From contig CAVWWD010000006.1 of NCBI GenBank assembly GCA_963758635.1, positions 256,001 through 320,000 of the forward strand: a stretch of DNA of 64,000 nucleotides, given 5' to 3'. The translations under genes and the position numbers were made by a program. How positions within the stretch are numbered: position 1 is the stretch's first letter; the number at the start of each line of letters is the position of its first letter. The stretch comes from an uncultured Candidatus Rokubacteria bacterium (lineage in GTDB: Bacteria > Methylomirabilota > Methylomirabilia > Rokubacteriales > CSP1-6). Positions 1,298 through 28,739 of the stretch are shown here, piece after piece. The notes under the pieces were generated by a model. It was given only the letters and a program-made list of their open reading frames with translations. It had not been told where the DNA came from and made no database searches.

Positions 1298-4127
1298 TCA
1301 CATCAACGGCGTCAGCTGCCGGATGTTCAGTTGCGCGGCGATGAAGGTCAGGACGTCCACGTGCGTGCGGGCACTGTGGGCTTCATCCGACCGCTCGGCG
1401 AGGAAGACCGGCGCGTCTGGGCCATAGTGCTCCTGCAGCTCCGCGGCCATGCCGTAGGTCTGGTAGGGCTCGACACGATCGTCCAGCCGCCCGGTGGCGA
1501 GCAGCAAAGGTTTGAGTAGCATCTGTCTACTGCGAAGCTCTGCCACGTGGTGCGCGGGGGACCAAGCCTGGAGCACCTCCATGTCCTGGGGAGACTGCTG
1601 GAGGTCTCCCGCCGCGTTGTGGCGGAACCCGAAGTCGTCCCACGCGGATCGGCCGAAGACCCCGTTCTCCAGGAACCCGGGAGGATCGCTCACCGGCATC
1701 TCGGCCACGAAGAGATCGATGGCCTGCGGCGCCTCGACCATAGCGGCCAGGGTGTGCATCCCACCGTACGACCGTCCCGAGGCGACGATGGGCGTATCGG
1801 GGAACTCTTGCTTCAACCGCTCCGCCGCGCCCGCGATGTCCTCGAGCGTCGCGCGACGGTGGAGCCTGATGTCCTGGTCCTGCCACCGGAGGCCGAACTC
1901 ACCGCCGCCACGGACGTTCGCGATGGCCACCGCGCCCCCGAGTTCGAGGACCAGTTGGAAGATCGGTTTCTCGTCCCACGTCGGCAGCGTGGGGGCACCG
2001 ATCGCGCCGTAGTAGTAGAGGTACACGAACGCCGGTTTCGTGCCACGGCGGGTCATCAGCTGGATCGGCACCTGCGTCCCGTCTGCGCTCCGGAACTCAT
2101 GCCGCTCATACTTCACGTCGTTGCCCCCCCGGCAGAGTAGCGCTTCGCGACCAAGTGGGGCGATCGCGAATTGGTCGCTCAAGTCGACGGTGAGCGTCTG
2201 CCTCGGCGTCGCGATACCTTCGTAGGTGAAATAGGCCCTGCCGGAATCCTCATTGCCCGTGAACTCCGACAGCGTGCCGTGGTCGTCCGGGGCCCCAGCG
2301 TCCGAGGGCCTCCACGTGTGGACGTCTCCCGTTCTCCAGGTTAATGAGCCGCACCTCGTTCTCCAGGGGCGGCGTGAGGTACTGAAGGGCCAGAAAGGAC
2401 CCGACCCGTTGCGCCCTGATCAGCACGTTGTGGGGATCCGGGGCGACAACACGAGTGGGCTCCGTCCTCGGATCATCGAGATCGACGGCGATCACGGCGA
2501 AGTTGTTGGCGGTCTGCCCGTCGCAGGTGCTCGCCCTGAATAGGGCCCGGTTCTCGTGGACCGTGATGAAGTGCCCGAGCACTCCCTCGCTGGACGAGAA
2601 CAGGCGTGTCACCGTCCCGCCGTCTCGGCGGTCCACGAGATACGCGGCGAGCGGGATCTCGGCCGATCCCTGGACTCGATAGGCGATGAACCTGTTCCGA
2701 TCGATCTCGTAGATGCCGTAGTCGGCGTAGTTCGGCCATTCAGGGTTCGTGAACTCCACCGGATCGTCCGGCGTCCGCCCTGCGGCCTGGGAGATGGAAC
2801 GGTACCGGATCTGCTTGCCTGGCGGGTACGCCGGCTCCCCTCCGAGCGTCGGGACAGCCGAGTAGTAGAATCCGTTCGAGTCCCGACCCCAGTACACGGC
2901 TCCCATCCGCAGCTGCACCTCGTTGCCCTCGATCCGCTCCCTCCTGCCGAGGTCCATGACGCTCCAGAAGGACACGTCACCGTCCTGACGCTTCCGGGCA
3001 TATGCGACTTTCCTGGTGTCGGGGCTCAGCCGGAAGTCGACGACTGGCCCGGCCGCGGCACTGACCAGCTCCTGCCGCGGCCCCGACGCGACCTGCCACC
3101 ATAGGGCGTCATTCTCGATGAAGAGCTCTCCGGCCGGGCAGTGGAAGCGCCTCGGAGGATTCTTCGGGATCAGCTCCATCGCGCGCAGCTCTATGTCTCT
3201 CCTCAAGCCGCCCTCGGGGAGCGCCCGCGGCTGCCTCCTCAAACCGTCGATGGGGTTGGGCAACGCCGCTCCGGCGCCGAGCCCCGCCTGCGGCACGCCG
3301 TTGAGCCACTCGGTGCGTCGTGCCCGGTCCAGCGCGGCCCGGAAGAGCGGGCACTCGTCTCTGAGGATCCCGAAGAGCTTCGTGGCGAGATCCCTCCCCG
3401 CGACAGTGTCACTGGGATAGTGGAGACCGGCTCGCTCACGGTTGACGGCGACGTTCTCAGCGCGGTCCATGTGGTCGTCGCGCCCACTGCGCAGATACTT
3501 CAGGATCGCGCCCATGAGGTACATCTGGGTCGAGTGGCCGCTCGGATAGGCGGGGTGGCCGGGGAGCGGGATCGGAGGGGCCAGATCGGGATCGAGGAGC
3601 CAGGGCCGGACCCGGTTGAAGCGCTCCTTGAAGTACATCACCGCGGAGCCGGCCAGGTGCAGGCCGGCGACCACGAGCTCGGTCGTGAGGGGATGCGAGG
3701 TCGGCGAGAAGTGCAACTGGTCGAACCAGTATCCGACCATGACGGAGCCTTCCTGCTCACGGCTGATCTTTCCGAAGTGGTCCCGTCTCGAGTCCTTCAT
3801 GCGACGCAGCGTGTCGAGCTCGCTGTCGATGAGGTCGGGCATGAACGGACGGACCAGGTTGTCCCGGTTGTGGGTCCAGGTTGCGGAGGCGTACAGCTCC
3901 TGCTTGTACAGCTCGGCACGAAAGTCGGGATCCCAGAATACCCACGGGATCTCGGTCGCTCGACGTTCCGGGAGGACGTGCATCCCCGCCATCCTCAGCG
4001 CGAAGGCGGTCGCCGTGGCGGTGGCGGTTGCCATGGCGGTCGCCGTGGCCGTGGCGGTGGCGGTGGCGGTAGCCGTCGCGGTGGCGGTGGCCGTGGCGGT
4101 GGCGGTCGCAGTAGCTGTGGCTGTCAT
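1298..4127 (-). CDS. Fusion protein: N-terminal (Thr-Ala)n repeat + PAP2/acid phosphatase-haloperoxidase domain + prolyl oligopeptidase (S9A); one frameshift near 2320
   Basis: GGAGGAG RBS before ATG 4127; PAP2 motifs KERFNRVRP, YPSGH, RERAGLHYPSD; propeller-like region (FRLSPDTRKVAY, WGRDSNGFYYS); S9 motifs ANVRGGGEFG, GRSYGG, DDRV and a C-terminal His; the reading frame of ORF 1298..2182 is open upstream to about 2320. Confidence 0.8.
4005..4124 (-). repeat. Coding dipeptide repeat (TA)15-MA-(TA)4
   Basis: 6-bp period ACN-GCN; all four Thr and all four Ala codons are used. Confidence 0.95.
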
Positions 4128-4167
4128 GGTCTCCTCCGTCTTCTGGCCAGGATGTTCAGGAGCAGGC

Positions 4168-4851
4168 TCACGGCCGCTCCCACTCGGCCCGTGCTTCTCC
4201 CAGGGCGGTCATGAACTTCGGGCAATCCCTTTCAGGATTTCGTAGCATCTGCACGGCAAGCCCGCAACCGGCCGTCGTGTCGCTCGAGTAGTTGAGGCCC
4301 GCCCGCTCGCGATTCAGGGCGACCTCCTGGGCCCGGGCGCGAATTTTCTGCTCGGCGTCCCGCGGCGCCAGCTCCGTCAGCACCAGGGCCATGAGGTGCA
4401 TCTGCGTCGAGTGACCCCCGGGGTAGGACGGAAGCCCGGGCACGGGGATCGGCGGGGACAGATCGGGGGCGAGGATCGAGGGCCGCACGCGATTGAACCG
4501 CGCCTTGAAGTACGTGGCGACGGAGCCGGCCAGATAGATGCACGCGTGGAGCAGCTCGTTGGTTCGCGGACGCTCGCTTGGCGTGAACTTCAGCAGCTCG
4601 TACCAGTACCCGATCATGGTCGCCGCGTATTGCTCCTGGGAGATCGCGCCCACGTGCTCGTCCCGCACCTTCCTGAGGGAGAGGAGATCCTCGACCTCGC
4701 CGCGCGTGCTGTCGTTCCAGGCATCCACCATGCCGTCGCGCCGCTTCGGGTCCTTCCAGGTCGGAGTCGCGAAGAACTCCGCCTTGTACAGCTCCGCCCG
4801 CAAATCGAGGTTCCAGTTCTTTCGGAGAAACTCCGTCTCGACCTTGGCCAT
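4168..4851 (-). CDS. PAP2-family protein, paralog of the adjacent domain, with catalytic His replaced by Asn
   Basis: KARFNRVRP, YPGGH, RERAGLNYSSD; AAGGAGG RBS; shares W..D.RAELYK with the neighbouring gene. Confidence 0.85.
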   Translation of the reverse strand: MAKVETEFLRKNWNLDLRAELYKAEFFATPTWKDPKRRDGMVDAWNDSTRGEVEDLLSLRKVRDEHVGAISQEQYAATMIGYWYELLKFTPSERPRTNELLHACIYLAGSVATYFKARFNRVRPSILAPDLSPPIPVPGLPSYPGGHSTQMHLMALVLTELAPRDAEQKIRARAQEVALNRERAGLNYSSDTTAGCGLAVQMLRNPERDCPKFMTALGEARAEWERP

Positions 4852-4888
4852 GGTGTCCTCCTTGCGCGTGGCTCGCTGCTGACGCCGG

Positions 4889-7647
4889 CTACTCGGGAAG
4901 TCCGGCTTGCCGGAGAGCGTCGATGTAGGCGCCGAGCTCCGGCTCCCGCAGCGGATACCATTGCCGGAAGCCGGAGAGTGTGAAGGCCCGATCGATCTGC
5001 AAGAACTCGCGCGCCATCTCCCGCGCCTCCGCGAGGCGGCCGAGATGGACGAGCGTCGCGGCCAGGAAGCGGAGATTCACCGACCACCGCGGGTTCTCGC
5101 GCCGCGACTGGAGGCCGAAGGCGAGCGCCTCGTCGTATTTCCCGCACAGCATGGCCGCAAAACCCGAGACGCCGGTGAAGTAGAAGCCGAGCGGGTCGAA
5201 CGGGCTCAGGCGGAGGGCGTAGGCCTCGCGATCGAGGGCCGCCTTGGCCTCGCCGACGTAGCAGAGGGTGATGCCGCTCAGGCCCCAGGCCATCTGGGAG
5301 TTCGGGTTGAGCGCGAGGGACCGCTCGAAGAGCTGCAGCGCGCGGGGGCACTCCTTGTCGATGAACGAGGCGGCGTGCGCGCTGACGGCGAGCGCCCACG
5401 CGTCGTCGGGATCGCGGTCCAGCGCCGCCTGAGCCATCCGGCCGACCTCGGGCCTCTCGGTGGCGGCTTCGGCGGCGGTCACCAGCCCTGGCCGAACTTC
5501 AACAGATACCACCACGCGCGCCAGGCGTACGCGGCGGCGAAGTTCGGGTCGAGGGCAATGGCCTTCGCGAGGAGCTCGCCCGCCTGGAGGAACTCGTCGG
5601 GGGACAGGCGGTAGAGCAGCGTGAAGGCACGCAGCACGCAGTCGTAGGCGTCGAAGCTGTCGGGATGCTTCTGGAGGGCCCGCTGCGCCTCGGTGATGCG
5701 CAGTGTGCTCTCGAGGGTGCCGACGATCCGCGAGGTGATCCGATCCTGGAACTCGAAGACGTTGGCCAGCGCGCCGTCGTAGTGGTCGGCCCAGATCGTG
5801 TTGCCGGCGCGAGCGTCGATCAGGTCGGCGGTGACCCGCAGCTGCGACCCCGCCTTGCGCACCGTGCCCGTCACGACGTAGCCCACGTTGAGCTCGCGCG
5901 CGATCTGTCGGAGGTCCGCGATCTTCGACCGATAAACGAGCGTCGACGTGCGCGAGATGACGAAGAGCCATCGGATGCGCGAGAGGGCCCCGATGATGTC
6001 CTCGGTGATGCCGTCGCCGAAGTACTCCTGGCCGGGGTCCCCGCTCAGGTCGCGGAAGGGCAGCACGGCGATCGAGGGCCGGTGAGAAACGGGCGAGGTG
6101 CTGAGCACGAGGACCTGATTCGGGCGCGGTGGTCCCTGGACATCCGAGACGTTCGCGCTCGAGCCGCCCGAGAGGCCCGGCCGCCCCGTCACGAAGGGCA
6201 CCGCCGAGGCGGTGACGAGCATGGTGCCGGGGGCGATGCCGGAGGCGAGACGATTCACCTCGGCGACGGCCTCCGCCTGATCGGCCGGGTGGAGCGGCTC
6301 TCCCGCTGGGCCCGGCCCCGTCCGGCACTCGGTGACGTGGATGGCGGCCCGCGTGGACATGGCGATGGGGCCCGCCGTCTCGGCGGGTCCGACGGCCCGC
6401 TGGATGGAGAGCGCAGCGTGGGCCGCCCGGCTCGCCCCGTCCGCCACGTCGGCGGGAAAGCGGCCACCACGCGAGTGTCCGTGATCTCGGCGGGCACGCC
6501 GCCGAACGCCCGGACCTTGTCCAGGGCGACGTTCAGCGCGTGGCTGACCTGGGCCGCGCGAGGCGGACATCGGCGGCGACTCGATCTCCGCCCAGAGGAA
6601 GGCGACGGGCCGACGGACGGCGGCCGTGTCGACGTGCCGGCTTCCCCGGGCCCCGGGCGCGGGCGCCGGATCCGGTCTCAGTCCGTACTTCTCGAGCCGG
6701 TAGCGGAACGTGTTGCGAGGAATGCCGAGGAGCGCGGCCGCCCGGGACAGGTTTCCCGCCGCCGCCTCGAGCGCCCCCGTGAGCCGCGCGCGTTCGAAGT
6801 CACCGACGCTCTCGCGCAACGAGCGATCGGCGTCACGCGGCACGATGACGTCTCTCGCCGGCGCCGGCGCGTGGCCCCGGAGGTCGAGGTCCGCCCGGCT
6901 GATCGACGGACCCTCGACGAGCATCGCGACGCGCTCCATGAGATTTGCCAGCTCGCGCACGTTCCCCGGCCAGGCATGGGCTTCGAGCGCGGCCTTCGCA
7001 TCGGGCGCGAGTCGCTTCGGCGCGAGCCCGTACTCGGCGCACAGCTTGCTGAGGAAATGCTCGGCGAGCAGGGTGATGTCGCTGGGACGCTCGCGAAGCG
7101 GCGGCAGCACGACGGGCATGGTCGACAGGCGGTGATAGAGATCCTCGCGGAAGCGGCGCTCCCGAGTCGCCGCACCGAGCTCCTCGCTCGTCGCAGCCAG
7201 GATCCACACGTCCAGCGGCTCGGCCCGTGTGCTCCCAAGGCGCCGCACCGTCCGGTCCTCCAGCGCCGTCAACAGCTTCGCCTGCAGCGAGACCGGCATC
7301 GCCGCGATCTCGTCGAGGAAGAGAGTCCCGCCATTGGCACTCTGAAAGAGCCCTGGCTTGCCCTGGCGGGCGTCGGTGAATGCCCCTCGCTCGAACCCGA
7401 AGAGCTCCGCCTCGAGCAGCGTATCCGGAATGGCGGCGCAGTTGATCGGGACGAACGGCTTGCTTCCGCGAACGCTGGCGCGGTGGATGACGCGGGCGAG
7501 CAAGCCCTTACCGGTACCGGTCTCGCCGAGGATGAGAATCGGAGGGAGGCGTCCCGAGGACCGCTGATGCTGGAGCAGCCTGCCGATCTGGGCTCGGATG
7601 GCCGAGATTCCCGCGCTCTCTCCGACCAGATCGGCCAGTGGCGGCAT
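4889..7647 (-). CDS. Sigma54-dependent activator (AAA+ and Fis-type HTH) fused to a degenerate cyclase-like segment, TolB-like domain and TPRs; frameshifts near 6520 and 5470
   Basis: GETGTGKG, GAFTDA, LFLDEI, FREDLYHRL, WPGNVREL, GNLSRAAALLGIPRNTFRYRL; then PSIAVLPFRDLSGDPGQEYFGDGITEDII and TPR-like AIALDPNFAAAY / SLALNPNSQMAW. Confidence 0.85.
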
Positions 7648-7708
7648 CCATTGGCCATGGTAGTCCCCCGATATGAGAGGGGCAAGGTCGCTGGGAACGA
7701 GCCCATGC

Positions 7709-8374
7709 TCAAGCGCGCAGGGCGAGCAGTTCATAGACTTCGACCGGGTTGATCCGGCCGCGGACCGGGAACCATCCTCGCCGGCGCGCCTCCACCCGAT
7801 CGCTCAGCAAGGCCTGCATCTGGCCGCTCATGAGGATGGACGTGCCGAGGTACCGGTTGAGATCCTCGAGGCGTGACGCGACGTTGACGGTGTCGCCCAC
7901 CACGCCGTACTTCCACTTTCGCGGCGATCCCACGGGGCCGGCGAAGACCTGGCCGCTGTGCATCGACACGCCGATCGGCTGCCTGACCCGCCGTTCCGCC
8001 TCCGACCACCCGTCGCGTCGACGAAGAGCGGCCTGCATCTCGACGGCGCTCACCGCGGCATGCCACGCATGGTCCGGATCGTGCGTCGGCACCCCGAACA
8101 CGGCCAGGATCCCGTCCCCCACGAAGTCCTGGACCACGCCATGGCTCGCCATGATCACGTCGATCATGACGGTGAGGTAATCGTTCAGAAAGGCGGCCAT
8201 GTGTCGTGGCGCCACGTCCTCGGCCATGGCGGTAAACCCGCGAAGGTCGGCGAAGAGGATCGATACCGGCACGACCTCGCCCTCGGTGGCGGCATCTCCC
8301 GAGCCGGTATGCTCCGCGGCCTGCATAAGATTGTCTCGATGGTCTGCATCGGTCTCGAGTCCGGGTGCCTTCAT
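7709..8374 (-). CDS. Stand-alone class III nucleotidyl (adenylate/guanylate) cyclase; start uncertain (8326-8419)
   Basis: ILFADLRGFT, FVGDGILAVFG, GDTVNVASRLE. Confidence 0.9.
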   Translation of the reverse strand: MKAPGLETDADHRDNLMQAAEHTGSGDAATEGEVVPVSILFADLRGFTAMAEDVAPRHMAAFLNDYLTVMIDVIMASHGVVQDFVGDGILAVFGVPTHDPDHAWHAAVSAVEMQAALRRRDGWSEAERRVRQPIGVSMHSGQVFAGPVGSPRKWKYGVVGDTVNVASRLEDLNRYLGTSILMSGQMQALLSDRVEARRRGWFPVRGRINPVEVYELLALRA

Positions 8375-8434
8375 CGCCCTCTCCCCTTGGCGCCCCGCTT
8401 CGCCGCTTCTGAAATCCATGTCGCCCGTCGTTGA

Positions 8435-8451
8435 TGCAAGCGCATCGCCAG
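8435..8451 (-). promoter_or_regulatory. Putative sigma54 -24/-12 promoter
   Basis: Minus strand CTGGCGATGCGCTTGCA gives TGGC-N7-TTGCA with exact GG-N10-GC spacing, directly upstream of the cyclase gene in an operon encoding a sigma54 activator. Confidence 0.6.
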
Positions 8452-8909
8452 GGAGGAACGCGCTGTATTCCGCTGGGTTGCGGAGCATGCTGCCGAAAGT
8501 TCGCCAGGCGAAGCTGTCGAGTTCCCGGCGATCCCCGACAGGTCCGTAGCCCGTGCTGCACCGTGACGAGCAGGACGCGCCTGGGCGGGCGGCCACGTGG
8601 GGACGGCGTGCCATCCCAGCGGCCCTTTGGGACCCATGGACGGAGGCCGGCCGACTTTTGCTTCGGTGGCGCTGGTTTCGAGGACGGTCGTTCCCTTGAC
8701 CTTGCGCGCACGCTCGATGTAGCGTCTGGCGATGGCGAGCGCGAGACGTTCAACGCGCGTTGCGCCCGTCACGGGCCGCCAGCCTCCAGGATCCGCGCGT
8801 GTCGCTTACTCCCCGCCCCCTTCGCGCGCGCGTGCGCCTCCCCCTCCTGCTCCTCGCCCTCGTCCTGGCCACAGCGGGCCCCGCCGGCGCCGGAAGCGTC
8901 GCGGCCCGC

Positions 8910-11901: not shown

Positions 11902-13215
11902 CTAGTCGGCCGCCGCCGCCACGCCCGCGGTCACCCGGGCCGGGAGGCGCAGCGTGAAGGTGCTCCCGCGGCCGGGCGCGCTCTCGACGGTGATGTCGCC
12001 GCCCATCATGCGGCAGAAGCTGGCGGCTGATCGCGAGGCCGAGCCCGGTGCCGCCGAACCTGCGGCGTGGTGGACGCCTCGGCCTGGGAGAACGCCTGGA
12101 AGAGGCGCGCCATCTGCTCCGGAGTCATCCCGATGCCGGTGTCCGACACCGGACGACGATCGAGTCGCCGTCCGCGCCCGCGACCCGGGCGCCGGCGAGG
12201 GTGACCCGCCCGCGCTCGGTGAACTTGACGGCGTTGCTGGCGAGGTTGAGCAGCGCCTGACGGATGCGCGTGGGGTCGCCGTGCATCGAGCCGAGGTCCG
12301 GGCGCGCACTCGATCGAGAGCTCGTTGCCGTTCTTCTCGGCGAGCGGCGCGCACCGTGCTCGCCACGTCCGCGACGAGGGCGCCGACCGCGAACGACTCG
12401 AGGTAGAGCTCCATCCGGCCCGCCTCGATCTTGGACAGGTCGAGGATGTCGTTGATGAGCGCGAGCAGGTGGTGGGCCGCGCGCGTGATCCGCTCCAGCG
12501 GGCTCGACGCTCTCCGCGGCCCCGACGCGCGGCGTCCTCGTGCAGCATGTCGCGTGACGCCGATGATGGCGTTCATCGGCGTGCGCAGCTCGTGGCTCAT
12601 GTTCGCGAGGAACTGGGACTTGTGCCGGCTCGCCTGCTCGAGCTCGTGGAACTGGGTGGCGTTCTCCACCGCGATCGCCGCCTGGGCGGCGAAGGTCTGG
12701 AGGAGGTGGATCTGCCGCTCCGAGAACGGCCGCGGCGCCGCCCGCGCGACCCCGATGGCGCCGATGCCACGGTCGCTCCGCACCATCGGCACGAAGAGCC
12801 CGGCCCGGAACCCGAGCGCGCGCGCGAACCGCCGGGTCAGGTCGGTCACGTTCGGGTCGGTCTCCACGTCGGGGAAGTGCAAGACGCGCTTCTCGAGGAT
12901 CACGCGGCCGGGCAGGTTCGACGCGACGAGGGGGAGCGGGTAGGCGGCGTTCGCCGCCGCCACCGTGGCGGGATCGACGCCGGGGACCTCGGCGAAGTTC
13001 GACGCGGCCAGGCGCACCTGGCCCCCCTCGGCCAGGAACACGTTCGCGAAGAGGCCGTCGCAGAGGCGGATCGCGTGGCGCATGATCGCCTCGAGCACCG
13101 GCCCCGCGTCCCCGCGCGAGCTGGCGATCAGGCGGAGGATCTCCAGCGTGGTCGCCTGCTCGTCCCGCGCCTGGCGGAGCGGAGACGGCTCGCCGGTGCG
13201 CCCCCGCCGCGTCAC
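11902..13215 (-). CDS. GAF-domain sensor histidine kinase, frameshifted
   Basis: GAF ([22 protein letters not shown]), H-box [31 protein letters not shown]. Confidence 0.9.
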
Positions 13216-14702
13216 CGGCGCGGCGCCTCGCCGGCCGGAGCGGGCGCGATGCTCTGCTCGTAGTCGAAGAGCGTCGTGGAGTTGTAGCGCTGCTTCACCT
13301 GCAGGAGCTTCCCGAACACGTCGCCCCAGTACTGCCGGCGATAGTCGGTGAGAGTCCGCCGCGGATAGTTCTGGTAGACGGAGCCGTTCCAGTACGGCTG
13401 CATCAGGGCCACGAAGCCGTCGAGCCAGGCCACCGCCCGATCCCGCTCCTCGGGATGGAACCAGAAGGAGTCGATGAAGAGGTCCATGTCCACGTCGCGG
13501 TGGATGAACGCGTTGCCCGTCCGCGGATAGCGGTTGATCGTGCCCCCGTAGGGCTCGATGACGATCATGTCGTCCACGCTGGGACGCGTCATGTAGTAGG
13601 CGATGATGCGGCCCCAGTCCGCGGCGGTGAGCGGCCTGGCGATGTACCCGGCCTGCTTGTCCTCCATGGGCACCACGTCCACGGGCGGGATCCCGTCCGG
13701 ATACTCCAGCAGCTTCTGGTTGAGCGCGTAGTAGGAGCCGACCTCGTCGATCTGGAGCGGCTGCACGCCCGGGGTCTGCAGGAGCGGCTTCAGCTCGTTC
13801 AGGCCGTCGTTGCGCGCGCCCACGTACATGCCGCGCATGAGCAGCCACGGGCCGTCCTTCTGCTCGGTGACGATGGTCATGTACCCGAGCCGGTCGGAGG
13901 CGCCCGTGCGCATGAAGCCCTTCTGCATCGCGACCAGCGCGTCCGGCGCGTGATCGAGGCGCCAGCGCAGGCCGAACCCCCACACCGACGGCAGCTCGTG
14001 GAGCCGGTACACGACGTTGATGAGCACCCCGAGGTTGTTGCCGGTGCCGCCCCGGATCGCCCAGAAGAGGTCGGCGGCGTCCTTCTCGTCGGCGATGACC
14101 AGCCCGCGGTCCGGGGTCAGGACGCGCACGGACAGGACGTTGTCGCAGTTCATGCCGAAGGCGCGGGAGGTGAAGCCGTAGCCGCCCCCCTGCATGTAAC
14201 CGCCCACGTAGAAGTCCTCGCAGCCTCCGCCCGGCACGTGCAGGCCGTAGCCGTTGAGCTCGGCGTTGACCTTGCCGAAGTTGGCCCCCGCGCCCACGCG
14301 CGCGGTCAGGGACGCCTGGTCCACGATCACGTAGTCGTAGCTGCTCATGTCGAGCACGAGCCCTTCGTTGACGGAGAAGCCCGCGGTGCTGTGGCCGCCC
14401 GAGCGGCAGGCGATCTTCCAGCCGTACTGGCGGGCCCAGTCGAGGCACTGCCGGATGTCGTCCAGGACCTCGCAGTACGCGATGACCTTCGGAAAGGCCT
14501 GGAAGGCCGGATTCGACTCCTGGCGGTCCTTGTCGTAACCGGGCGAGGTGGGATAGACGAGGGTGCCGCGGAAGCTCCCCTCGAGCGTTTCCACCGCCTG
14601 GCGGTCGAGCCCGAGGCGGGTGAGGGCCGCGGCGTCAGCGCGCCCGAGGGCCTGGAGCCGGCTCTCCTTCGCCTGACGCCATCTGGACTTGAAAAAGGCC
14701 AT
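13212..14702 (-). CDS. FAD-binding oxidoreductase, berberine bridge enzyme-like
   Basis: RSGGHS covalent-FAD motif, [15 protein letters not shown]-terminal YQNY..YWG BBE motif. Confidence 0.9.
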
Positions 14703-14957
14703 GCTGGCTCCTCGTCGCGCGGCGCGGCGGCGGCTCCGCAGCGCCACGCCGTCGAAATCGGCGGCACACCGTGGCTTCGAGCAGGGCGAGAATCGCCTTC
14801 GACCGCGGGGCAAGTCAAGCGGGGGAACCCCCTCCTTGCGCTCCGCGGCGCGATGGCCGATGCTCGGCGCGCGGCACGATGCGCGCGCCGGACGTCAGTG
14901 GTCACGGCGCGACGCTCGGCGGCGCTCGATCCACCGCTCGTCGAAAAGGAGCCTTGC

Positions 14958-16268: not shown

Positions 16269-16394
16269 AGGCCCGAGGCGAGCGCGTCCAAGTCGATAGC
16301 GAGCGGGCGGTGGCGCCGAAGCTGGTCGGTCACCGTCTTTCCGCGCAAGCTCCCGCGCGGACCCGCCGCGCCGCAGTCGAGTTACAGTACATCG

Positions 16395-16612
16395 AAACAG
16401 CCTGCGGATTGCGGATTCCGCGGTCCTTTGCCGCCGAGGCTCAGGTGGAGGAAGGAGTGACTGTGGATCTGTCGGTTGAGAATGGGCAACTCTTGGTCCG
16501 ACCACTCCGGGTGCGCAGGTATTCGCTGAACCTACTCCTCCGCAAAGTAAGCCGGCGAAACCTGCACGGCGAGATCGCGACGGGGAGCACAGTCGGCCGC
16601 GAGGCGTGGTAG
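16395..16612 (+). pseudogene. mazE: MazE/AbrB-family antitoxin lacking its N-terminus
   Basis: NSL/GLRIPRSFAAE...YSLNLLLRKVSRRNLHGEIATGSTVGREAW; no start region. Confidence 0.75.
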
Positions 16613-17788: not shown

Positions 17789-17930
17789 CGCGCGTAAGCG
17801 CGTGCACGGCACAACAAGTCGCGAGGCGCAATCACCAACGCACGCAAAGCGCGAACTCCGCGACGGGGTAGTCCCGCGCGGGAGCTTGCGCCGCCGTCCT
17901 CGCCCCAGGGTGGGTGTTTGCGAGTCCTCG

Positions 17931-18090
17931 TGTTGTGAGGGGCGCAGTAAACCTGGACCCGGCAGAGGACCTGCTTCGCGGCGCCGCGACTGCGCGCCCG
18001 CCGCTGAGGCCAGGCGTGATCCCCGCAGCGCAGTACGCCGAGATCCGCCGCCTCTTCCACGCCGAGCACTGGCGCATCGGCACCATCGTG
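17931..18090 (+). mobile_element. IS21-family left-end remnant (terminus plus the first ~25 codons of istA)
   Basis: MIPAAQYAEIRRLFHAEHWRIGTIV resembles IstA N-termini; upstream TGTTGTGAGGGGCGCAGTAAACCTGGACCC resembles a TG-starting terminal repeat. Confidence 0.6.
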
Positions 18091-18120
18091 AGAACGCGGG
18101 TCGGGTATATACTCGTCCAT

Positions 18121-18372
18121 ATGAAGCAGCAGCTCTTGATCGAGATCGACAAGGACATGGCGACGCAGCTCGAGCGCGTCGCCCCGACCCGTTCTCGGCG
18201 CCGGTCCGAGTTCATCCGTGCCGCGATCCGGCGGGCTCTGTGGGAACTCGAGGAACACGCCACCGCGCAGGCGTATGCGCGCCAGCCGGACTCGGCGAAG
18301 GAGGTGTATCTCGACGCGGCGGTCTGGGAGGCGCCCCCGCGGTCTCGATCTCGCCCACGACGTTGCCAGTGA
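18121..18372 (+). CDS. Ribbon-helix-helix antitoxin
   Basis: MKQQLLIEID...RSEFIRAAIRRAL; stop overlaps the toxin start (GTGA). Confidence 0.8.
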   Translation: MKQQLLIEIDKDMATQLERVAPTRSRRRSEFIRAAIRRALWELEEHATAQAYARQPDSAKEVYLDAAVWEAPPRSRSRPRRCQ

Positions 18373-18698
18373 GACAGTATGAGATTCGGTGGGCCAACCT
18401 TCCCGACCCAATCGGTCGGCGCCCGGTCCTGCTCTTGACGCGAACCCCGGCCTACGAGTACCTCACGAAGGTCGTCGTCGCCGAGATCACCACCACGGTG
18501 AGGGACATTCCCCAGGAGGTTCCGCTCGGGCGGCGGGAGGGGCTTGGCCGGCCCTCAGTCGCCAACCTCGACAACATCCACGTGATCCCGCTGGATCGCG
18601 TCGGTGAGCTAGTCGGGGTCCTCCCGAGCGCCCGGCACACCGAGGTCAAGCGCGCCGTTGGATATGCCCTTGACTGGCCCGAGCTGAAGGTGCTCTGA
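18369..18698 (+). CDS. PemK/MazF-family toxin
   Basis: EIRWANLPDPIGRRPVLLLTR...AEITTT...SVANLDNI. Confidence 0.88.
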   Translation: MRQYEIRWANLPDPIGRRPVLLLTRTPAYEYLTKVVVAEITTTVRDIPQEVPLGRREGLGRPSVANLDNIHVIPLDRVGELVGVLPSARHTEVKRAVGYALDWPELKVL

Positions 18699-27773: not shown

Positions 27774-28202
27774 TCACGAAGGTCGCGGTCCCGGGTCGCC
27801 GGTCAGAGCATTGAGAAACGCCCGTGGGGAGACGATCCGGATTCCCTGGAACACTTTCAAGCGCTGAAGATGCCGCTTGTCACCGGTCACGAGGAAATCG
27901 GCGCCGGCCGCGAGCGCGCACTCGAGGATCCGGTGATCCGGTTCGTGGGAGGTCACGTCTTGTAGCTTGCGCGTCGGCCTCACCAGCGCGGCGATCGTGG
28001 CCACCTCGGCGAGCGCCTCCCGGACATGGGCAGGCGGCCAGTCGAACGTCCGTCGGAGCACGGCCCGGAGTTCGCTCAGGATTTCCGGAGAGACGTACAG
28101 GTCGACGAGGCCCGCTCGCGCGAGGACGAGGACCTCCTCGCAGGTACCGCCGAAGACGATGGCCGAGACATAGACATTGGTGTCGGCGACGGCCCGGATC
28201 AC
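27774..28202 (-). CDS. PIN-domain toxin
   Basis: AVADTNVYVSA...DHRILECALAAGADFLVTGDKRHL. Confidence 0.9.
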   Translation of the reverse strand: MIRAVADTNVYVSAIVFGGTCEEVLVLARAGLVDLYVSPEILSELRAVLRRTFDWPPAHVREALAEVATIAALVRPTRKLQDVTSHEPDHRILECALAAGADFLVTGDKRHLQRLKVFQGIRIVSPRAFLNALTGDPGPRPS

Positions 28203-28456
28203 CGGGCGGCCCGGCGACGGCCGGCCCGCACCTTGTCGAGGAGGCGCTGGAGGTCTCTCTCGCTCTTCAAGCCGAGTCGGTCAGCGGTCTCCGCCCCCCA
28301 CCGCCGCAGCCGCTGCCATCGGCGGGAGGCTAGGTACTGGCGAAGCGCCTCCCGGATGAGGTCGCTGCGGCTCCGGTCCTCCTGCCGGGCCACGCGCTGC
28401 GTTTCGTCGAGCAGTTCCGCGGGCAGCGAGATCGTGATCAGCTTGGTCGCGCGCAT
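28199..28456 (-). CDS. Ribbon-helix-helix (CopG) antitoxin
   Basis: MRATKLITISLPAELL...RSRSDLIREALRQY; overlaps the PIN start. Confidence 0.88.
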   Translation of the reverse strand: MRATKLITISLPAELLDETQRVARQEDRSRSDLIREALRQYLASRRWQRLRRWGAETADRLGLKSERDLQRLLDKVRAGRRRAAR

Positions 28457-28470
28457 CCCCGTCTCCCGTG

Positions 28471-28488
28471 TGTTACGCAGTATTAACA
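28471..28488. promoter_or_regulatory. Candidate RHH operator upstream of the TA pair
   Basis: AT-rich inverted repeat TGTTA-N8-TAACA, 15 bp upstream of the antitoxin start; TTGACC nearby on the minus strand. Confidence 0.4.
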
Positions 28489-28739
28489 ACCTAGCATGGT
28501 CAAGAAGCCTAGGACCACAGGGTAGATTGCAGTAGGCGGGCTCGCTGGCCAGTCGCGCGGCGTCGCCAGCATGCTGCCGAGAGCCCCGATCGCGGCGGTG
28601 GCCGGGACGGTGAAAGAGCGAAAGAGCTACGGGCCAAGGCGGCCCAGCTGGGCTGGTGACGCTACGGGGGCTAACGGCTCGGCGACGGCGGACGGCCGCG
28701 TCGGTGGCGCCGGCCGGGCTGCGAGAAGGGTTCGCCCGA

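Follow-up and report, generated by a model that had tools for sequence, protein, structure and literature searches.

A conserved operon with a sigma54 activator and a Thr-Ala repeat leader in Candidatus Rokubacteria, one version of a wider sensor, phosphatase and peptidase module

Introduction

In the RRNPP(A) systems of Firmicutes, a TPR receptor is encoded beside a gene for its cognate, sometimes repeated peptide, which undergoes proteolytic processing; the propeptides are small, exported and re-imported (PMC9765709). An operon recalling this arrangement was identified in a 64,000-nucleotide stretch (hereafter the window) of contig CAVWWD010000006.1, positions 256,001 to 320,000, from an uncultured Candidatus Rokubacteria bacterium (GCA_963758635.1). 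Its four genes lie on the minus strand with gaps of 61, 37 and 40 bp and encode, in order, a stand-alone class III nucleotide cyclase, a sigma54 activator fused to a TPR sensor, a PAP2 copy, and a fusion of a Thr-Ala repeat leader, a PAP2 domain and an S9A peptidase. The repeat of the operon is the N-terminus of a 930-amino-acid cytoplasmic protein with no export signal and with a dedicated peptidase. Judged by sequence, the operon can be likened to an intracellular RRNPP system but is not a member of that family, as no exported propeptide is present.

Activators of the PspF type are controlled by a product of their own target operon. Like them, the activator described here combines an AAA+ domain and a helix-turn-helix (HTH) with no N-terminal regulatory domain and probably feeds back on the linked operon, and the PspF model matched it at E 5e-74, below the cut-off. 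Its regulatory part, however, is C-terminal and consists of a dead cyclase, a TolB_N domain and TPRs, and the operon has no PspA homologue. Xanthomonas XC_0250 joins a class III cyclase to a TPR part of uncharacterised function and has a cyclic GMP (cGMP) output, its described partner being the cGMP-binding GGDEF protein XC_0249 (PMC3770947). The operon is likened to it, by description and not by sequence, through the cyclase-TPR architecture found among its own relatives, and differs in that the cyclase of its sensor is dead and cGMP is predicted to come from a separate gene.

The S9A fold, and the adjacency of an S9A peptidase to an enzyme-fused peptide, are known from OphMA/OphP, PCY1 and GmPOPB (PMC12235650), whereas the operon has no methyltransferase, joins repeat and peptidase in one chain and differs in the residues of the proline pocket. 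The fold of the class A acid phosphatases (PhoN/PhoC) was found in both PAP2 copies and their three motifs in the fused copy, but the operon PAP2 proteins scored 19-26 bits against the PhoC model, whose cut-off is 430. As for Pycsar, no receptor effector (PycTM, PycTIR) was found in the operon, and none of the eight PF00027 matches of the genome lies on the operon contig. At the offsets of EaPycC R142 and Q144 (before D146), the window cyclase has Asp and Val, as mapped by distance from the metal-binding Asp and not by structure. By these markers the operon is not a Pycsar system, and no support was found for a Pycsar-like defence role.

Conservation of the operon and the wider module

The operon is a conserved system and one version of a wider module composed of a sensor, a repeat-leader phosphatase and a peptidase. 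The order cyclase, activator, PAP2(Asn) and leader-PAP2 recurs together with the promoter in L025 and L027; L026 shows it as far as its contig reaches, and L002 has the core with a different cyclase type on the other strand and a divergent promoter. The linkage, which the initial annotation had put forward as the thing to check, is thus kept. Intact PAP2-peptidase fusions of 929 and 930 amino acids are present in L027 and L002, respectively, and partial versions occur in L023, L024, L028 and L031. Homologues of the activator numbered 29, with identities of 71-100% across the 576 C-terminal amino acids; 27 of them were full length. The PAP2 protein search gave 64 matches. Two of the 251 genomes of the class, many of them incomplete, had the PAP2 pair, and one further genome had a single weaker match. 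In L002, an extra sigma54 activator without sensor domains (L002:3139-5037) heads the operon, and the cyclase is of the sensor type, transcribed oppositely from its own -24/-12 site.

A TolB_N-TPR sensor, a PAP2 protein with a repeat leader and an interchangeable peptidase make up the invariant core of the family. From a set of 160 PAP2 loci, the 107 with at least 2 kb upstream were used for leader-sensor counts. The repeat leader was found in 62 of 66 loci with a TolB-TPR gene versus 1 of 41 without, and in that exception (L096) the leader is accompanied by a BTAD-TPR sensor which the query had missed. As a control, PAP2 was present in 1 of 79 other TolB-TPR loci, and that PAP2 had no leader. 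With the same five profiles, seeded from module loci, a peptidase adjoined PAP2 in 56 of 68 module loci versus 5 of 52 others; it was found in 66 of the 68 once the 12 misses were followed up with Pfam, which was done on module loci and not on 47 other loci. The peptidases belong to the G1, M36/M4-like, C1, S8, S9A, C70-like and metzincin classes, and about 40 different leader repeat units of 2-4 residues, in up to about 30 copies, occur across the module. Sensor outputs among 54 longer loci were a cyclase (33), BTAD (12), sigma54 (3) or unclassified (6).

Two features, the pseudo-PAP2 and a sigma54 output, were added in this lineage. The view of the operon as one unit holds in that it is conserved and self-contained, but the cyclase and the two active/inactive pairs do not belong to the invariant core. 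New in the operon version are the sigma54 output, the TCGACA element, the pseudo-phosphatase, the PAP2-S9A fusion and a likely Cya2-type guanylate cyclase. A literature search, whose reach ended short of supplementary tables and most subscription papers, found no description of the module, which agrees with the earlier remark that the architecture was not recognised as a characterised one.

The leader repeat changes together with the TPR part of the sensor. L037 and L044 are 92% identical in PAP2 and 99% in TolB_N but 49-50% in the TPRs, and the repeat goes from QGN to HTG. At PAP2 identities of 0.55-0.70, mean TPR identity was 0.81-0.83 in 35 same-repeat pairs versus 0.48-0.53 in 44 different-repeat pairs, with L131 left out of the comparison because its distant sensor falls among the controls. 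Sensor and PAP2 trees, built by FastTree with two second sensors left out and 38 of 75 controls used, were congruent over 65 loci (r 0.70, 0 of 999 permutations). Other TolB-TPR genes branched apart from the module sensors, save one distant sensor. The motif GQG[WL] was tried as a marker of PAP2-linked sensors and was too incomplete (25 of 67 versus 1 of 75 controls).

Several module loci had features of their own. The pair L037/L044 looks like a natural specificity swap. Proteins of 820-930 amino acids encoded at L176:8748-11216 and L157:8753-11362, convergent on dipeptide-leader PAP2 genes, had no Pfam match and showed an HExxH motif and M36/M4-like atlas neighbours. A methyltransferase and a large metzincin-motif protein were added in the module versions at L085:2476-5795 and L168:5134-8642. 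In L038:6720-8510, L140, L147 and L156, the PAP2 protein with an EGN leader has about 350 extra, unassigned and strand-rich-looking residues between leader and PAP2.

Gene content of the operon

All parts of the cluster, annotated before as four co-oriented genes with short gaps, were found in place on the minus strand (Table 1), the whole (TA)n-PAP2-S9 gene running from 4127 to 1298. The host genome comprises 12 contigs at about 71% G+C, and the nearest named relatives of the operon genes are from Rokubacteria.

Table 1. Features of the operon and its upstream region (window positions)
Feature	Position	Strand	Basis or remark
Stand-alone class III nucleotide cyclase, 221 aa	7709..8374	(-)	PF00211
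Sigma54 activator (AAA+, Fis-type HTH) + degenerate cyclase-like segment + TolB_N-like + TPR	4889..7647	(-)	Pfam; frame-broken in assembly
Leaderless PAP2 His-to-Asn paralogue, class A acid-phosphatase fold, 227 aa	4168..4851	(-)	Pfam, model
N-terminal leader Met-(Thr-Ala)15-Met-Ala-(Thr-Ala)4	4005..4127	(-)	Mixed synonymous codons
Intact PAP2/class A acid-phosphatase domain of fusion	3300..4004 (approximate boundaries)	(-)	Three motifs
S9A prolyl-oligopeptidase-fold peptidase, fused to PAP2	1298..3299	(-)	PF02897, PF00326; frame break ~2328
Sigma54 (-24/-12) promoter	8435..8450	(-)	TGGC-N7-TTGCW pattern
Conserved upstream element, two TCGACA-like half-sites	8491..8521	(-)	Outside 1298..8451, the span of the initial annotation

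Frame breaks, which the initial annotation does not mention, are present in the assembly. The activator gene is frame-broken near 5480 and has a compensating pair at about 6440-6557, the PAP2-S9 gene is broken at about 2328, and the end of the PAP2(N) gene shows a local double shift at 4230/4243. The homologues are single open reading frames (ORFs) of 908-955 amino acids for the activator and 916-930 for PAP2-S9. The extra base at 2328 and at 6557 was absent from short-read contigs (one low-depth contig each), while single low-depth contigs showed compensating indels at 4230/4243 and one gap spanning 5429-5660. Thus the frameshifts are likely to be assembly errors, which falls short of proof because each site is covered by a single low-depth contig; a pseudogene is an unlikely reading, given the intact homologues and the short-read contigs. 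RNA structure in the intergenic gaps was not convincing in any of the five stretches scored (z-scores -1.9 to +1.4), the best candidate being a hairpin 3' of the last gene. Nine proteins were compared with NCBIfam, and no model was matched at its cut-off.

Promoter and sigma54 activator

The sequence TGGCGATGCGCTTGCA at 8450-8435 is the sole TGGC-N7-TTGCW site in the window (60 genome-wide). A TGGY-N7-TTGC site was found at the same position in all five loci with upstream DNA, and among about 2000 shuffles of each 300-bp region only 0 to 26 held one, so the sigma54-type promoter recognized by the initial annotation stands. In the same five loci, TCGACA-like half-sites, 24-25 bp apart, precede the TGG of the promoter by 69-71 and 45-46 bp; two half-sites are found upstream of just one of the 82 genomic TGGY-N7-TTGCW sites, which is the operon promoter itself. 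This element is likely to be the binding site of the activator encoded in the operon. Since it is conserved and unique in the genome, we infer that the activator drives the promoter of its own operon, the simplest reading. A wider regulon was sought with a loose pattern of the element and rejected, since only one of the seven genome matches stood before a sigma54 site.

The AAA+ domain of the activator keeps motifs that we take to be Walker A, Walker B, the arginine finger and sensor II, followed by a Fis-type HTH; the GAFTGA-type loop reads GAFTDA, a variant. Together with the -24/-12 promoter and an rpoN gene in the host genome (PF04552, E 5e-61), these sequence motifs identify it as a bacterial enhancer-binding protein. 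A degenerate cyclase segment follows the HTH and was recognized by hhalign with a probability of 91.7%, compared with <0.5% in 10 column shuffles. The metal-binding Asp residues are missing from it, and it is 52-69% identical among homologues versus 75-90% for TolB_N and TPR. The label 'TolB-like' of the activator domain comes from the source names of homologues.

Stand-alone cyclase

The best solved-structure match of the stand-alone cyclase was 2W01, Cya2 of Synechocystis (E 2.5e-29), a proven guanylate cyclase in which Glu488 sets the specificity (PMC5995499, PMC6005667). Its catalytic residues are intact, namely the two metal-binding Asp and the Asn/Arg (FADLRG, VGDG, NVASR). At the position of Glu488, Asp was found in all four orthologues, followed further on by K-Y-G in the window cyclase and K-Y-A in the three others, with Lys in all four. 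The Glu-Gly specificity pair of Cya2 with its supporting Lys is thus matched in part, by an acidic base-specifying residue, the Lys and, in the window, the Gly. The operon cyclase departs from Cya2 in having no CHASE2 or membrane part, Asp for Glu488, and Ala for Gly in three of the four. A guanylate cyclase of the Cya2 type is more likely than an adenylate cyclase, and cGMP is the predicted product. Of what had been annotated, the active/inactive pair is upheld by the intact residues here and the degenerate fold in the activator, and so is the class III assignment; the cyclase has to be set outside the invariant core of the family.

PAP2 pair and Thr-Ala leader

In the upstream PAP2 the His of motif 3 is Asn (codon 4291-4293) and PSGH of motif 2 reads PGGH. 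Alignment A1 has Asn in 48 of 56 rows and His in 8, and 41 of the Asn rows also have Gly for the motif-2 Ser; a sequencing slip as the source of the Asn is ruled out by these 48 rows. Asn at this site was found in 5 of 13 PAP2 ORFs in this lineage versus 0 of 151 elsewhere. The leaderless paralogue is predicted to be catalytically inactive. Its model (pLDDT 94.6) best matched the fold of 7F17, an acid phosphatase (TM 0.75). Identity as a vanadium haloperoxidase, for which a large two-bundle fold of about 410-600 amino acids was the criterion, was rejected for this 227-amino-acid single domain (TM <=0.61 versus 0.75 for acid phosphatases).

The fused PAP2, 48% identical to the upstream copy, has all three motifs intact (His codon 3420-3422), so the pair of an intact and a His-to-Asn PAP2 proposed before is real. 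Of the 151 PAP2 ORFs outside this lineage, 147 retain the catalytic His, which argues that PAP2 catalysis matters. By crude hydropathy, no hydrophobic N-terminus that could serve for export was found in the PAP2 proteins, and five intact homologues showed neither a membrane stretch nor one resembling a signal peptide.

The long Thr-Ala leader, also noticed in the initial annotation, is conserved, with 14-16 units in L002, L023, L025 and L027. Since synonymous codons are mixed in all five copies, the repeat is one of protein and not of DNA slippage, and slippage or phase variation as its origin is excluded. In a single-chain model of the fusion the leader was predicted with low confidence (pLDDT 26-62) and was not placed.

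Other PAP2 genes of the genome, on contig C1, have tandem domains and signal-peptide-like starts and are unrelated to the cassette; tandem PAP2 genes lie at 25.6-26.7 kb and 36.7-37.7 kb of G000:C1 (L018, L019), one of them beside a regulator with a winged HTH and an ATPase.

Fused S9A peptidase

The peptidase comprises propeller and hydrolase domains with a Ser-Asp-His triad (GRSYGG, DDRV, EAHS); its model reached pLDDT 91.1, and 7VGB was the best match. The proline S1 pocket of OphP consists of Phe, Val/Ile, Trp and Tyr, with Asn after the serine (PMC12235650). Aligned to 7VGB, the operon peptidase has Ile for Phe, Tyr/Phe for Asn, Ala for Trp (the next residue being Trp) and Phe for Tyr. 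By sequence it therefore has the S9A fold and triad and lacks the proline pocket, four positions of which differ; that small residues such as Ala are preferred would be a guess. The nearest relatives are a stand-alone GRS[FY]GG subfamily. Because many of these have signal-peptide-like starts, the fusion seems to have taken in a peptidase that was once secreted. The divergent stand-alone S9A subfamily P0196-P0240 mostly has GRS[FY]GG or similar for GxSNGG, and many of its members have signal-peptide-like starts.

Proposed mechanism and alternative explanations

Gene content and order, motifs, folds, promoter conservation and co-variation were computed here; binding, cleavage, catalysis and the direction of the switch are proposed on that basis. 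Tentatively, and with somewhat less than even confidence, the operon is read as the sigma54-activator version of the widespread module, working as a self-amplifying switch in which the repeat clusters the sensors and the peptidase ends the signal. The TPR domain of the sensor would bind the Thr-Ala repeat; several sensors would thereby be brought together on an intact repeat, and the activator would be assembled in this way. The assembled activator would fire the operon promoter from the upstream TCGACA repeat, giving positive feedback, until the fused peptidase cuts the repeat and switches the system off. Through the product of the first gene, cGMP would carry the signal to the remainder of the cell. 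The dead PAP2 copy, which has no leader, might mix into the phosphatase oligomers, so that fewer tails are shown and the switch is damped.

Sigma54 activators need to form rings, and BTAD regulators need to oligomerise. Dimers are required by the cyclases (PMC6005667). That sensors collect on the intact repeat, and that the peptidase acts by destroying this repeat, is proposed because a perfect tandem repeat co-varies with the TPRs, the three interchangeable outputs need oligomerising and a peptidase of any class is obligatory. A broader form of the same idea, possible but rather doubtful, is that multivalent repeats of 2-4 residues constitute a private scaffold code, which would oligomerise any output domain on its cognate TPR and be erased by a dedicated peptidase, wired here to a sigma54 promoter and cGMP. 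If so, the cell would sense whatever blocks the peptidase (inhibitors, pH, metal loss), in the manner of a guarded protease.

Several observations weigh against the switch. The L037/L044 swap is a single pair, and L063/L094, the only other close different-repeat pair, shows a small TPR drop (0.74-0.78 versus 0.83 for TolB_N). The TPR region adjoins the leader in the DNA, and one recombination tract could move both regardless of function. Kin are not independent in the counts, and the peptidase counts lean on profiles drawn from the module itself. Some members of this lineage (P0065, P0037, P0042 and L024) have short or degenerate leaders while TPR identity stays at 75-90% among sensor homologues, which poses a genuine difficulty. 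The promoter could be served by other sigma54 activators, of which the genome encodes many (29 tblastn segments); the stand-alone cyclase has Asp where Cya2 has Glu; and the model names no substrate for the intact phosphatase, despite its conserved His. None of the five readings, the switch and the four that follow, in fact explains what the conserved phosphatase activity does.

The same linkage and co-variation would arise if the peptidase cut out short Thr-Ala peptides which the TPRs bind to turn the activator on, an RRNPP-like signalling inside the cell. RRNPP propeptides with up to six identical copies are described (PMC9765709), and the repeat period tracks the peptidase class in loci with a detected leader: dipeptides with M36-like (27 of 27), tripeptides with G1 (28 of 28) and tetrapeptides with C1 (6 of 6). 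The period also tracks the family tree, however, with four changes, and periods 2 and 3 are mixed within the S8 and the metzincin loci. The repeat protein shows no export signal by crude hydropathy, and a free Thr-Ala dipeptide would be low in information and expected from ordinary protein turnover; release of a peptide signal is considered unlikely, though to be taken seriously. Biosynthesis of the kind that yields RiPPs, peptides made on the ribosome and modified after translation, is less probable still. In that case the leader would be an enzyme-fused precursor modified by PAP2, the S9A domain would release or macrocyclise the product and the TPR activator would sense it. The macrocyclases PCY1, GmPOPB and OphP are among the close fold matches of the peptidase, whose proline pocket is remodelled, and OphP acts on the enzyme-fused precursor OphMA, a smaller P1 pocket selecting small residues (PMC12235650). 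Yet the repeat units (e.g. AG, GV, GM, TA, EGN) have no modifiable side chain in common, unrelated hydrolase classes replace the peptidase across the family, the neighbourhood clusters show no conserved transporter or further tailoring gene, and the PAP2 fold is nearer class A phosphatases (TM 0.75) than haloperoxidases (TM <=0.61).

In an anti-phage or conflict role, the sensor would detect an invader, a cyclic nucleotide would be made, the toxic effector would be the phosphatase or the peptidase, and the leader would serve as bait. Such a role would suit the patchy distribution (2 of the 251 genomes of the class have the PAP2 pair), the variable flanks and the fast turnover of TPR and leader. 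PADLOC models, though, matched none of the five PAP2 or peptidase proteins and hit the cyclase and activator at generic domains; a cyclic-nucleotide receptor is absent from the operon, and other residues stand at the specificity sites of Pycsar. This reading is improbable, slightly more so than the biosynthetic one. The circuit of sensor, second messenger and effector suggested by the initial annotation is kept in flavour, with its conflict side unsupported by any defence model at PAP2 or peptidase. Finally, loss of most of the leader in some members would fit a neutral linker or translation aid within an ordinary regulator-enzyme operon; with a perfect protein repeat despite synonymous codon mixing, the tie of leader to sensor (62 of 66 versus 1 of 41) and a TPR that changes together with the repeat, little credence is given to it.

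TolB-TPR cyclases and regulators form a very large family, estimated at about 6000 stretches, for which the module supplies a candidate ligand. The sigma54 version has a compact promoter and a conserved upstream element, absent from the cyclase versions, which would make a simple reporter read-out. Further gains from the operon would be a bacterial pathway that probably signals through cGMP, a pseudo-phosphatase that is conserved, and an S9A subfamily of the non-proline kind.

Other genes in the window

Small toxin-antitoxin-like gene pairs (MazE/PemK-like, ribbon-helix-helix) were noticed by eye at 16300-16612, 17914-18698 and 28000-28500 of the window. A FAD-binding, berberine-bridge-type oxidase is encoded at 13212-14813 on the minus strand, adjoining a GAF histidine kinase.

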